From Eledone cirrhosa (Eukaryota), in the NCBI GenBank assembly GCA_964016885.1, contig OZ024753.1:17484001-17548000 (forward strand): a stretch of DNA of 64,000 nt, in the 5' to 3' direction. Below, in pieces: positions 12,552 through 58,776 of this stretch. Position 1 is the stretch's first letter. Each line of letters opens with the position of its first letter. A program made the position numbers and the translations under genes. Under the pieces are notes generated by a model that saw nothing but the letters and a program-made list of their open reading frames with translations, ran no database searches and was not told the DNA's origin.

Positions 12552-12762
12552 TAAAGAGGGTATGGAAAGGAACCGGGATGACCATAACGCACTAGAGTAC
12601 TCGATATTTGGGGTAGTAGAGTGGGTAATAGGAAAAGAGTCAAGGACCCCGACGTCTGAGCTCCGGCTCTTTCGACAGCTACATCCGAACTAAGCCAGCA
12701 ATTCGGATCTAGCTGTCGAAACGGCCGGAGCTCAGCCGTCGGGGTCCTGACTCTTTTCCTAT
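12552..12762 (-). mobile_element. Family A Penelope-terminus mini-element (fold-back hairpin plus tail)
   Basis: Palindrome 12628-12762 built from the hammerhead 3' half; tail homologous to 57097-57147 and 37906-37985; flanked by (TA)n. Confidence 0.75.
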
Positions 12763-14867
12763 ATATATATATATATATATATATGCACAGCACCGCGTGT
12801 ATTAGAAGCTCCAAGACAAGTTTAATATAGATATAACTACGGTTTTTTAATAAGTCACAGCGTGAAAATAAAACAAATGGAACTAGACGCTTCAGTATTC
12901 CCTGTATGAACAAAAGAAACATAATTGCTTCTATGCATTTCTTAGAACTTTCTCTGTTCATCAGTTGGCAATAATCTTTATGATGCCGCCTACATAGGGA
13001 ACGTACACCAGGCACTTTATGTCAAATACAATTGAAGATATTAGATGAATTGTTGCGCCGGCCAATGTACATGGCATGTATTTATTTGAAACCAGAATTA
13101 ATTATATAATAACTATTTATATGCATCACAGCAAACATAAAAACGTCTAAGATAAATTAAATATCGAAAGACAAAAAACTATTGCCTTTAGGCGATCGCT
13201 TCATAAACGTATTGTTATCTACTCATCAAGTGCTAAATACTCATATCTAAAGAAGGAACTTATATCAGTTATTGTTTATATCAAATCCTATGTAGAACTC
13301 CTCTGAAATGGACAGGTTAATTTACGCGAGGGAAAAAAATCGTCATATTTGGATATATACAAATATCTTGTTGAATAGAATCTGCCATTTTAGGCACGAG
13401 AGAGAAAAAATATATGACGCGACTTCGTCAAGCTATTTGTTTAAAAAGAGTTGAGGGCAGATAATGGAAATTATGGCATATCTACTCGTAGCACTCGGAG
13501 TTAAAATAGTACTAAAGACCTATATGTCTAAAATACAGAAAGTACTGGGCTACGTCTTACGTGTCTATATGAAATTAGTTGATTTGCTACGTTCGTGTGT
13601 GTATTGAGTGTGTTGTGATGTGGCGTCATAAAGTGTCATGGCGCCATAAAGTGTCATGGGGGCGCCATATTGACATACAGCGTTTCTAGGGCTCTTTTTA
13701 AGCCTGGCGGAGCCCATCCCCTCCCCCAGTCTGATTACAATCGATTTCTTCTAGAGAAGGATGGAGATTGAGAGAATGGAAGTGAGAAAGACATTTTTAT
13801 CGACCTTCAATGGATGAAAGGCAAAGTTGACCTGGACGGGATTTGAACTCATTAATCGGAGAGCTGAAACAAATAACACAAAACATTCTCTTCGACGCAC
13901 TCCATGACTCTGTCAATTCGCCACCTTTGTAGCAGTGGAAACATTGACAAATGACAGCTGTCTGTGAGGGTCTTCTTGTTTTGTTGTCTTTTGCTAATAT
14001 TCAGTGTTGTTACTGTGTAAATGTTTATGATGAAGTGTATTAAATCTAATTAGTTACAATAGCAATTTTTTTAGGGTTTTACAGACTTAATTGAAAAGAC
14101 AGGACATAATTAATGGAAATGTATTTGTAGAGAGAACCAATTCTCTGCCTCATTGAGCAGCAATGTAATTACTCCAATAGATTTACATTGACAAAATAAC
14201 ACCAACATCAATCATTTGTACAATAATATCCCCCTCTCTCTCTCTCTCTCTCTCTCTCTCTCACACATTATATACATATGTATACATTCTCTCTCTCTCT
14301 CTCTCTCTCTCTCTCTCTCTTATATATTTATATATATATATATATATATATATATATATATCACACATATATATATATATATATATATATATATATCACA
14401 TATATATATAATATATATATATATATATATATATATATCACATATATATATAATATATATATTTATATACATAGATCAGTCTCATATATATATATATATA
14501 TATATATACATAGATCACTCTCATATATGTGTGTATATCTGTGTGTGTGTATATATATATATATATATATGTGTGTTTGTATATATATTCACACATAGAT
14601 CACTCTCATATATATATATGTGTGTGTGTATATATATATATATATATATATATATGTGTGTATATATATATATATATATATAGAGAGAGAGAGAGAGAGA
14701 GAGAGAGAGAGAGAGAGAGAGAGAGAGAGAGAGAGAGAGAGAGATCACTCTCATATATATATGTGTGTGTATGTATATATATATGTGTGTATATATATAT
14801 ATATATATATGTTGATTTAACACTTCACTGCTCGAAAGTGTTTTTTAAGCTTCATATCATATCTCCT

Positions 14868-14938
14868 TATTTTATCTGATGAGAACGCAAATATCATCCC
14901 ATGATGATATTTGTTTTTGAAATACGCATAATAAAATA
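14868..14938 (+). ncRNA. Type I hammerhead ribozyme (family C)
   Basis: tattttat-CTGATGA-gaacgcaaatatcatc ccat gatgatatttgttttt-GAAA-tacgca-TA-ataaaata; element 14810-15060 lies between (TA)n runs. Confidence 0.8.
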
Positions 14939-16091
14939 CATGGAACACTTTTAGCTATCTTTTGATTTTATATTATTTATACTCCAGTCCTATAAACTGT
15001 TGAGTGCTTCTTATCCGATATTTGCACTGCTTTATTGTGCTACAGTAAAACTCACCTCCTATATATATATATATATATATATATATATATATATGAGAGA
15101 GAGAGATCACTCTCATATATATATATATATATATATATATATATATATATATATATATATATATGTATATATATATATGAGAGAGAGAGAGAGAGAGAGA
15201 GATCACTCTCATATATGTATATATATATATGCAGGAAAATGTATTATTATTGACGAATGACGCTTATCAGTTTGGTTTCATTTCACTATTGTTTAAAAAC
15301 TTTAATTGATCAATTTAGATATATTAGATTAAAGAGATTTATTATATGGTACGATAAGGAATATAATTTGCTATATTTTGTCGAAATTCAAAGAACAACC
15401 TATTATGAGTGATATTTTTTTTTTTGTGAATATAGACGGTAAAGTGAAGCCAGTTTCTAATTAACCTTGAAATATTACATGAAAGTATTGTTTATTATTG
15501 GTTATGATTTATTGTATTGTTCCTTCTATAAATTCCATTTAAGTCAAATTACCGTATTTGCTAACCTATTGGACGCTTCTCGTATAAGACATGAACTTTG
15601 ACAAAAATATAATTTTAGTACATTTCGTCATAAACGTATTAAATATTATTCATTGTTTTTTTCGACATTATTTTGCTTATAAAAATTGTATTTTACTACC
15701 CTACTGGTAATACTGATAGTAATACAAACTAAATATTTCAAACCATAATTGTCTTCACCCTACCTTCGACCTCCCACCGGTCATACGGACGTATTGGACG
15801 CAGGCAAGATTTTTTTAATATGGTTAAAGTAGTCCAATACGCGGCCATATAGAGTATAATCGATATGGAGCGCGTAACTTTATTCAAAATTCCAAAGTTT
15901 TGGTACTTCTTAAATTATCTGTTATCCCACAATTGCAAGACAAACATACACTACCTTATGTCATTTTAAACATACACTACCTTATGTCATTTAAAACATA
16001 CACTACCTTATGTCATTTAAGCAATTACCATTATCCCACAAATATTATTTCTCGCACAAACAGTGAATCCTTCTCTTTTTCGATTTTAATT

Positions 16092-57147: not shown

Positions 57148-57274
57148 TTTTATATATATATATTTTATATATATATATATATATATATATATATATTTTA
57201 TATATATATATATATATATATATATATATATATTTTATATATATATATATTTTATATATATATTATATATATAT

Positions 57275-57905
57275 ACGGCTTAAACGGGATGTTTGTTTAC
57301 AAACACACCGAGCATTATAATAAATGTTCGGTGAATCCATACGTACATATATATATATGTGTGCATGTATGTATATATATATACATACTACTGTACGTCT
57401 GTATACATATATGTATGTACGTGTACATACTTATATTTAAGTAACAGCCGTACTAAGAGTGGGAAATGAAATTTCGTTTCATTTTTGCCGTTTATCGTTT
57501 TCGGTGCACCTGGCCGATTAACCCACTCGATATGCAAATTGGGCTTCTCAGCTGTTAATATGCATAAGGTAAGTATATACGTTCAACAATCTGGCAGGAA
57601 GGTATACGTTGCTGACGATAGCTAATAAGCTTGAAACTAGTACAGCGATACTTTGTCAGTGTTGAACAAACGATCAGCGATGGTTGCTGTACACTACGGC
57701 TTAATACGGGATATTTGTTTACAAACACACCGAGCATTATAATAAATGTTCGGTGAATCCATACGTACATATATATGTGTGCATGTATGTATATATATAC
57801 ATACTACTGTACGTCTGTATACATGTAAGTATGTACGTGTACATACTTATATTTAAGTAACAGCCGTACTAAGAGTGGGAAATGAAATTTCGTTTCATTT
57901 TTTCC
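57275..57905 (+). mobile_element. Family E retrozyme-like element, ~1.5 tandem monomers of ~420 bp
   Basis: Direct repeat 57277 vs 57698; flanked by (TA)n. Confidence 0.82.
57607..57647 (+). ncRNA. Minimal type I hammerhead ribozyme (family E)
   Basis: cgttg-CTGACGA-tagct aata agctt-GAAA-ctag-TA-cagcg. Confidence 0.85.
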
Positions 57906-58776
57906 ATATATATAAAATATATATATATAATTTATATATATATATTTTATATATATATTTTATATATATATATACTATATATATATTTTATATATATATA
58001 TATTTTATATATATATATATTTCATATGTATATATATTTTATATATATATTATATATATATATATTTTATATATATATTATATATATATATATTTTATAT
58101 ATATATTTTATATATATATTTTATATATATATTTTATATATATATATTATATATATATATATATATTTTATATATATATATATATTTTATATATATATAT
58201 ATATTTTATATATATATATATATTTTATATATATATATTTTATATATATATATTTTATATATATATTTTATATATATATATTTTATATATATATTTTATA
58301 TATATATATATATTTTATATATATATTTTATATATATATATATATATTTTATATATATATTTTATACATATATATATATTTTATACATATATATATATTT
58401 TATATATATATATATATTTTTTATATATATATATATTTTATATATATATATATATATATTTTATATATATATATATATTTTATATATATATATATATTTC
58501 ATATATATATATATTTTTTATATATGTATATATTTTATATATATATACATATATATATTTTATATATATATATTTTATATATATATATATATTTTATATA
58601 TATATATATATTTTTTATATATATATATATATATTTTATATACATGTAAAGTTATATTTAAAATTGTTGGGTTACAACTAGTAAATATTTATAACTGATA
58701 TAAAAGCACTCGACAAATATTTGGAGTATATTTACAATATTAAATAAATGGAAAACTATATTTATAAAACCATATT

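Follow-up and report, generated by a model that had tools for sequence, protein, structure and literature searches.

A duplicated bulged hairpin beside both insertion ends of Hydra-clade Penelope-like elements in Eledone cirrhosa

The 64,000-nucleotide stretch of Eledone cirrhosa DNA analysed here (contig OZ024753.1, positions 17,484,001 to 17,548,000; hereafter the window) contains repeats with hammerhead ribozymes whose tails share a short motif. This motif forms the 3′ side of a small hairpin with a bulged stem, and the hairpin-bearing families A, B, C, E, P and R are the 3′ ends of Hydra-clade Penelope-like elements (PLEs). The base pairs of the hairpin covary, the hairpin is present twice in full-length elements, and its two copies lie at a short, nearly constant distance from two insertion ends: T1, the end of the tail-less arm, is just 5′ of hairpin 1, and T2, the end of the tailed arm, is just 5′ of hairpin 2. 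The PLE tail is the interval between these two hairpin-marked sites, and nearly all inverted insertions take one end of each kind. We suggest, with a probability of about 70%, that the reverse transcriptase (RT) of the element binds each hairpin and primes just upstream of it, one site serving each nicked target strand.

The origin of the inverted pseudo-long terminal repeats (pseudo-LTRs) with a one-sided tail has been open since PLEs were first described; the published accounts, as far as they were available, call the tail optional and attribute it to endonuclease resolution or antisense self-priming. Frangieh 2024 (PMC11167929) demonstrated two internal starts and narrowed the binding motif only to 172 nt, according to the accessible part of that paper. 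The hairpin, its duplication and the end coupling were not found described in the literature searched, subscription journals and Repbase lying outside the search. We regard the finding as real: a conserved RNA element that is new, and with it a mechanism that differs from those so far described, in a clade already known. What is added is a small clade-wide duplicated RNA element together with a distance rule and a one-of-each rule.

The motif in the window and in the genome

An earlier note on this DNA had listed 13 sites of the string YYGAGTRCY at the ends of hammerhead families. All 13 are present, the plus-strand coordinates being exact and the minus-strand numbers denoting the leftmost base of each 9-mer. 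The window holds 18 matches, compared with 2.85 expected from dinucleotide shuffles, and (TA)4 or longer lies within 100 nt downstream of 12 of the 18 and upstream of two, in agreement with the claimed orientation toward the terminus. In a 780-kb sample drawn from evenly spaced places of the 3.0-Gb genome G000, (TA)n was found within 100 nt downstream of 58 of the 102 matches and upstream of 15, the background being 11.6%. The location at element ends holds for the listed sites and not for four further window matches (10348+, 46245−, 13498− and 10621−), which are away from element ends. Two members were absent from the list, one of them a variant that the string cannot match. The features considered below are as follows.

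14981..15008 (+): hairpin 1, family C (ACTC, CAGT-ACTG stem, TT bulge, GAGT GCT); hammerhead core at 14876
23604..23631 (+): hairpin 1, short family J; upper stem degenerate in this copy
29420..29428 (+): hairpin 1, 3′ half only, family J copy with internal deletion, inserted in (GA)n
37414..37436 (+): hairpin 1, family E, variant with a 1-nt bulge; inverted arm without tail, end at ~37309
41954..41976 (+): hairpin 1, family A; insertion 41731 (T1) to 42025 (T2)
48145..48197 (+): hairpin 1, family G, 40-nt inner part; 5′ strand ACTG here, ACTC in locus L093
50179..50200 (+): hairpin 1, family D; G-U in upper stem; ends ACC
57102..57128 (+): hairpin 1, family B; T2 end of a broken autonomous copy
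54293..57147 (+): broken family B Hydra-clade element with 3′ untranslated region (UTR), hammerhead and tail; parts: inverted T1 arm 54293-54767, RT fragment ~54770-55480 (+), inverted GIY-YIG fragment 55433-55825 (−)
10854..10876 (−): hairpin 1, family A; insertion 10788 (T2) to 11081 (T1)
12596..12622 (−): hairpin 1, family B subfamily; arm without tail, end at 12762
37953..37979 (−): hairpin 1, family B; insertion 37902 (T2) to 38100 (T1)
40617..40639 (−): hairpin 1, family A; insertion 40548 (T2) to 40847 (T1)
58705..58727 (−): hairpin 1, family A; inverted arm without tail, end at ~61593
27970..27994 (−): hairpin 1, family F; new to the list
52395..52419 (+): hairpin variant (GCTC, TT, GAGC TAT), new to the list, in the tail of hammerhead palindrome 52091-52385
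21630..22211 (no strand): family C inverted insertion; T2 end 21630 (−), T1 end 22211 (+)

The tail at 57120 is indeed shorter (22 nt to the repeat versus 45), and the site at 29420 has lost the 5′ half of its hairpin through deletion. The spacing to the element end that had been given for the motif is family-dependent, from 22 to 76 nt in the window; it is the distance to the upstream end T1 that is nearly fixed. Likewise, the motif does point to a terminus, T2, downstream, but the motif copy itself sits just 3′ of the opposite, tail-less end T1, and T2 precedes the second hairpin, which is outside the inserted DNA. The proposal of a conserved cis signal associated with insertion ends is supported, the signal being a structure rather than a 9-mer: the string is the 3′ strand of the hairpin, and its GAGT is a local form of a more widespread GAGC. 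BLAST places the tails in separate families instead of one alignable family, and conservation along them is not uniform, since in five families the lower stem varies by 2-5% compared with 5-16% for the rest of the tail.

The hairpin and its covariation

The hairpin consists of RCUC, a variable stem-loop, a 2-nt bulge led by a pyrimidine, GAGY and, usually, RCU, with loops of 1-60 nt. ACTC precedes the motif by 6-22 nt at 12 of the 18 window sites (0.05 in shuffles). For 16 G000 hairpins picked by their position in PLE ends, Watson-Crick pairs occupy the first three positions of the upper stem in 34 of 48 cases when the bulge is set to 2 nt, the permutation mean being 16.1, and in 8-15 of 48 when it is set to 0, 1, 3 or 4 nt; nine repeat clusters without PLE tails have no upper stem (9/27 paired). 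Among 34 non-redundant hairpins from metagenomes, both the Watson-Crick first upper pair (24 C-G, 10 U-A) and the lower stem GCUC/GAGC are present in every one. MAFFT left the 5′ strand of 20 hairpins of unequal length unaligned, and the pair count was limited to nine of equal length: 94% of the cells are paired (18-57% in slid controls) and five of the eight pairs have changed on both sides, the covariation score being reached in 0 and the count of changed pairs in 46 of 500 shuffles. Compensatory changes are found within the single families A, F and J as well.

A hammerhead family at L101:1284(−) and L115:8676(+) carries a further compensatory change of the lower stem (GUUC/GAAC), ends in CAC and starts ~4 nt after T1. 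In several families the tail also has a family-specific stem-loop between hairpin 1 and T2 (window 37880-37990, 10795-10885 and 50200-50245).

Simpler explanations of the motif were rejected. In family B it reads LST in frame, but coding constraint is ruled out because the motif lies 5′ of the first ATG and, across families, falls in all three reading frames. A splice donor or a DPE promoter element does not fit the consensus by eye, and neither requires a stem, judging from the part of PMC2377424 available.

Elements that carry the hairpin

Full-length family B copies are tandem units of 3,542 bp with an open reading frame (ORF) of ~720 aa. The motif is located 147 nt 5′ of the first ATG and ~50 nt 3′ of a hammerhead with the U3-A8 core variant, which has been described previously (PMC4209133, in part). 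Families A, C, D, E, I, P and R likewise have hammerhead cores upstream of hairpin 1; a strict descriptor missed most families and a loosened version was used. Rfam returned no hammerhead family among the best 150 of 376 matches, and those listed were driven by microsatellites.

In all 15 intact ORFs (four from G000 and 11 metagenomic) an RT with YRDD and a C-terminal Y..Y(I/V/F)G (GIY-YIG) are joined in a single frame; RW(K/R/T), DKT, the CxCx5C linker, and CxxC and CxH around conserved E and N are likewise present in all 15, and DKG is found in none. Such protein motifs are hallmarks of the Hydra clade according to the available text of Craig et al. 2021 (PMC8557442). A CCHH endonuclease motif was not seen by eye in the protein alignment, and a Pfam search with the family B protein gave no match at E 0.1. 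Four intact proteins that were aligned have 37-42% identity to that of family P. In a tree of the proteins of this analysis, which contained no named reference and for whose rooting the implausibly long Neptune-type outgroup branch was left unused, the six G000 proteins form one group among metagenomic relatives.

The link to an ORF covers families A, B, C, E, P and R, of which P and R were found in the genome sample; D, F, G, H, I and J are not tied to an ORF. The families had been called otherwise unrelated, and this does not hold: BLAST keeps the tails of A, B, C, E, P and R apart, yet these families are related through Hydra-clade ORFs and shared protein motifs. The insertion target is (TA)n, family J with (GA)n being the exception. 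Unit lengths are 3.54 kb in B, 3.7-3.9 kb in C and ~6.65 kb in R, the excess over 3 kb being mostly 3′ UTR; Hydra-clade PLEs are 'generally' shorter than 3 kb, as stated in the portion of PMC8557442 available. Hairpin-bearing tail ends number 69 in 860 kb, which extrapolates to ~2 x 10^5 for G000.

For families R (6.65-kb tandem units, 813-aa ORF) and C (800-aa ORF), the best 150 matches have 98-100% protein identity, with many intact ORFs (L190-L200, L248-L261, L342-L361); the amplification of both families is very recent. Family J (window 23520-23680 and 29345-29475; L131-L160) is ~140 bp long and lies in (GA)n, with TC rather than TA as the microhomology between template and target. No PLE ORF was seen alongside it in the output listed for 30 loci, and it looks non-autonomous. 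Loci L204 and L206 hold fragments of another PLE-like ORF (YSRYVDD, CxxCx6C linker), unlike both the Hydra and the DKG types.

Two hairpins upstream of the start codon

Full-length copies have two hairpins between the hammerhead and the ATG, usually 57-93 nt apart. In families A, B, C, P and R, hairpin 2 is located 76-138 nt after hairpin 1. A metagenome scan for relatives gave 80 loci, 34 of them with the N-terminus and at least 90 nt upstream, and among these 5′ UTRs 20 have two hairpins, 10 have one and four have none, whereas controls gave 0/90 ORF windows and 3/34 antisense windows. Grouped into 23 clusters, the counts are 13, eight and two, respectively. The spacing in this set is 57-70 nt.

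The hairpin was absent from the unassigned hammerhead families H3, H6, H8, H9, H12 and H13, which have one main end. Families H10 and H11, seen at the 3′ ends of DKG-type G000 loci, which from their motifs we take to be Neptune/Poseidon-type PLEs, have a single main end and no hairpin. Inspection by eye of the consensi accessible from Craig 2021 (PMC8557442) located the exact hairpin in Hydra-2_Amil, Hydra-2_Ajap and Hydra-1_Ajap (two copies), so that the published carriers include coral and sea-cucumber elements. In the available part of the supplement to that paper, exact 9-mers, the only form sought, occur eight times, four times at Hydra termini and four times inside the sequences of other elements, Naiad and Chlamys termini having been among those tested.

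Every carrier linked to an ORF is a member of the same clade, which would suit a functionless vestige of a single ancestral family. The motif, however, is retained across proteins of median 45% N-terminal identity (range 26-77%) while the loops are unalignable, the pairs of families A, F and J have changed in compensation, and the end positions track the motif. Descent without function is thereby largely refuted.

Insertion ends follow the hairpins

Of 89 family B ends, 41 are at T1, 5 nt before hairpin 1, 44 are at T2 and four are elsewhere. Over all exactly called ends, 60 of 68 fall 2-6 nt before a hairpin (225 seed hits remained uncalled). The rule also worked in the forward direction: in families P and R, T2 was predicted from hairpin 2 and then found 2 and 5 nt before it (three and two copies, respectively), and in family G the position of T1 led to a hairpin with a 40-nt inner part that the first search had overlooked. 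For the metagenomic elements, 50 of the 66 rows of the first end mapping were microsatellite self-matches and six of the other 16 were near a hairpin; after 12 distinct ends had been re-aligned, 11 were within −1 to +5 nt of one. Inserts that end at T2 do not include hairpin 2, whose action must therefore be on the template or the donor.

Some full-length copies start at T1 or T2 (L129, L190, L245, L249, L258/L343). Locus L343 is one unit running from T2 to T2, as expected from a circular or self-blocked template.

One might suppose that the hairpins serve translation, ribonucleoprotein packaging or hammerhead folding, the ends resulting from chance pairing of (TA)n primers with nearby UA words. 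Every called end does lie on TA/TAT microhomology, and in 18 of 21 metagenomic cases hairpin 2, the nearest, ends 6-25 nt 5′ of the ATG, with 12 nt as the commonest distance. UA words elsewhere in these AT-rich regions are nevertheless seldom used (the four exceptional family B ends), the end distance stays constant across families that differ in upstream sequence and in hammerhead-to-end spacing, and the coupling of T1 to T2 described below is left without a reason. We consider this explanation improbable, at much the same level as the DNA-level one discussed later or slightly below it. A role in translation in addition to the priming of reverse transcription is compatible with our proposal; from the position of hairpin 2 in the 5′ UTRs of L262-L338, the protein of the element, if bound there, could also repress its own translation.

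Two-ended insertions nearly always take one T1 and one T2 end

Clean inverted insertions combine T1 with T2 in 54 of 55 cases (B 27/28, A 9, C 6, D 4, E 7, P 1), and the lone exception is a clean T1+T1 insertion, L023. In compiling this set, 18 ends were unclassed and 13 duplicate loci were dropped; four inverted pairs with internal (TA)n were set apart, two of them T1+T2 and two T1+T1. With 137 T1 and 119 T2 calls, independent choice would give ~50% mixed pairs (P = 3e-15). A second set of 20 full-length family C loci gave T1+T2 in 12 of the 12 with two callable ends (eight had one or none), and there the long arm carries either end type. The PLE tail is an extension on one arm only of the inverted pseudo-LTR pair in these 54 of 55 and 12 of 12 insertions.

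Two independent particles could also start RT at both hairpins, the mixed pairs then reflecting an asymmetry between first and second priming or the selective loss of other products. Genomic data cannot separate one RNA from two, and both the T1+T1 insertion and the long arm that takes either end type would be at home in such a scheme. Yet independent particles should give about half mixed pairs, and 66 of 67 were observed; moreover, the mixed products are themselves inverted repeats, so that a basis for the selective loss of the others is not evident. We hold two particles to be quite improbable and a single RNA with two priming sites to be the better account.

Proposed mechanism

From these results, a hypothesis regarding the insertion mechanism may be put forward: the hairpin would act as RNA, bound by the protein of the element, while the endonuclease would nick both strands of the (TA)n target, as does that of the anole element in vitro (PMC11167929, in part). 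Each target 3′ end would then pair with a UA word of 2-4 nt just 5′ of a hairpin, and two RT active sites, probably of a dimer on one RNA, would start at T1 and T2. The two cDNAs would copy the same upstream sequence and join at their far ends, which would leave inverted pseudo-LTRs with the T1-T2 tail on one arm. For the anole element, the accessible text of PMC11167929 reports that both strands are nicked and extended, that two internal starts bound the tail, and that a dimer is predicted.

Several observations weigh against this mechanism. Binding of the hairpins by the Hydra-clade RT, and initiation there, are inferred from genomic sequence, and the anole element in vitro has the same start-site preference on both strands (PMC11167929, in the part available). 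The TA/TAT target microhomology with which called ends coincide makes each junction uncertain by a few bases, and no T1 end was called in family J. When hairpin 2 was examined in families A, B, C, E, P and R, family E had no canonical copy; among six published consensi, Hydra-1_Crog and Hydra-1_Amil have the hairpin with one mismatch and Hydra-1_Obim has none (PMC8557442, available part). The structure itself is modest: local folds are weak (about −1 to −9 kcal/mol), in three of six window copies (B, C and D) the whole tail has a minimum-energy fold other than the hairpin, and hairpin 2 often has a single upper pair, position 2 being Watson-Crick in eight of 21. The G-C to A-U change in the lower stem of hairpin 1 requires only a single event, on one branch of the tree, and the permutation P values overstate independence because the families share ancestry. 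Finally, G-U states number 10 against seven A-C, which does not pick out the RNA strand.

This undecided strand test leaves room for a signal at the DNA level, in which the GIY-YIG endonuclease would recognise the motif in DNA, that of the donor or of an intermediate (a duplex, a cruciform or single-stranded cDNA), cutting 2-6 nt from it, and T1 and T2 would be resolution cuts instead of RT starts. Craig 2021 attributes the tail to endonuclease-mediated resolution (PMC8557442), and the Drosophila virilis endonuclease needed the tail for cleavage of plasmid DNA, as cited in Frangieh 2024 (PMC11167929), both papers being available in part; the few full-length copies that begin at T1 or T2 would also be in keeping with such cuts. 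On the other hand, a duplex can be recognised without any covarying stem whose loops range over 1-60 nt, a cDNA that started at T2 would lack hairpin 2, and the anole RT in vitro starts on RNA at both tail boundaries, as reported in the same part of PMC11167929. We regard a DNA-level signal as unlikely and continue to favour hairpins that act in the RNA.

A wider version, in which an RT dimer on two tandem hairpins of one RNA carries out programmed double priming, one target strand per hairpin, and so produces the inverted pseudo-LTRs with their one-sided tail in endonuclease-bearing PLEs generally, is put forward tentatively, its chances being somewhat short of even. Other clades would then use other hairpin sequences, as the template of the anole element may hint by analogy.

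If the proposal is true, the hairpin would be a portable tag of 25 nt that says 'start here' to those RTs of retroelements that are most closely related to telomerase, and its portability would bear on RNA-templated insertion tools and on how telomerase-like RTs adopted internal templates. For annotation, the hairpin is a diagnostic of Hydra-clade ends.

Other repeats of the window

Six tandem units of 86-92 nt at 8692-9202 are the 3′ half of a family B-like hammerhead, with short (TA)n between them. Hammerhead family H3 occurs at 28494-29304 and 57278-57911 as tandem and inverted copies without the hairpin, and a palindrome with a hammerhead at 37537-37875 has arms that both stop at the same place, with neither tail nor hairpin. 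A near-perfect palindrome of 880 bp (94%) is found at 16082-16962. A repeat of ~190 bp resembling short interspersed elements has more than 15 window copies (e.g. 7278-7624, 8193-8400, 11108-11298 and 25489-25685). Two RT fragments of a non-LTR long interspersed element, 98% identical, are located at 18904-21004 (−) and 52616-53317 (−).

Comparison with known systems

Hepatitis B epsilon is a bulged RNA hairpin that is bound by the RT of the virus itself and sets the start of DNA synthesis, templating protein-primed synthesis from its bulge. In the mechanism proposed here, the start would lie outside the hairpin, the primer would be target DNA and there would be two hairpins. In telomerase, the internal template is placed by a neighbouring hairpin, and the boundary hairpin, 5′ of the template, sets the stop. 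The RTs are related (PLEs and telomerase reverse transcriptase being sister groups) and a template beside a hairpin is common to both; the likeness is offered as an analogy only, with no homology of the hairpins claimed.

In L1 twin priming, both target strands prime on the element RNA, which produces an inversion; the second site is used opportunistically, and there is no overlap between the arms. In the present elements, by contrast, both sites are at hairpins and both arms copy the same region. Twin priming of the L1 type was rejected as an explanation, the arms overlapping in nearly all cases; the rule that the direct segment begins at the map position of the inverted arm's outer end is obeyed by L245 but not by L343.

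Non-LTR retrozymes, as presented in the available parts of 10.64898/2026.07.22.740005 and PMC4209133, are short hammerhead repeats related to PLE pseudo-LTRs. An assignment of the present families to these non-coding tandem repeats was rejected, as A, B, C, E, P and R form the termini of elements with an ORF; the majority of the present families are inverted pairs of truncated ends that derive from autonomous elements, and only J looks non-autonomous.

The closest relatives are the published Hydra-clade elements (PMC8557442), which, in the part of that description available, share the C-terminal GIY-YIG, RWK-type and DKT motifs, CxCx5C, CxxC-E-N-CxH, the hammerhead, the (TA)n target and inverted or tandem pseudo-LTRs. 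The same part describes no tail hairpin or two-site rule, while its own consensi contain the hairpin. The units here are longer (3.5-6.7 kb), the tails measure 57-138 nt versus 30-40 nt, and the elements are very abundant in G000.

The anole element PAc, a Poseidon element of Anolis carolinensis (PMC11167929), belongs to another clade, its starts are inside the ORF and it lacks the RCUC/GAGY sequence; the part of the paper available names no conserved motif, duplicated hairpin or coupling of site to strand. It resembles the elements described here in that two internal RT starts bound the tail, the target is AT-rich and both strands are extended. Its printed template, read by eye as a single, uncomputed case, may moreover form a hairpin with two 5-bp stems separated by a 3-nt bulge on the 3′ side, at ~+121 to +147. 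This putative hairpin would directly follow the main start at +111 to +118 and lie within the required 172 nt.

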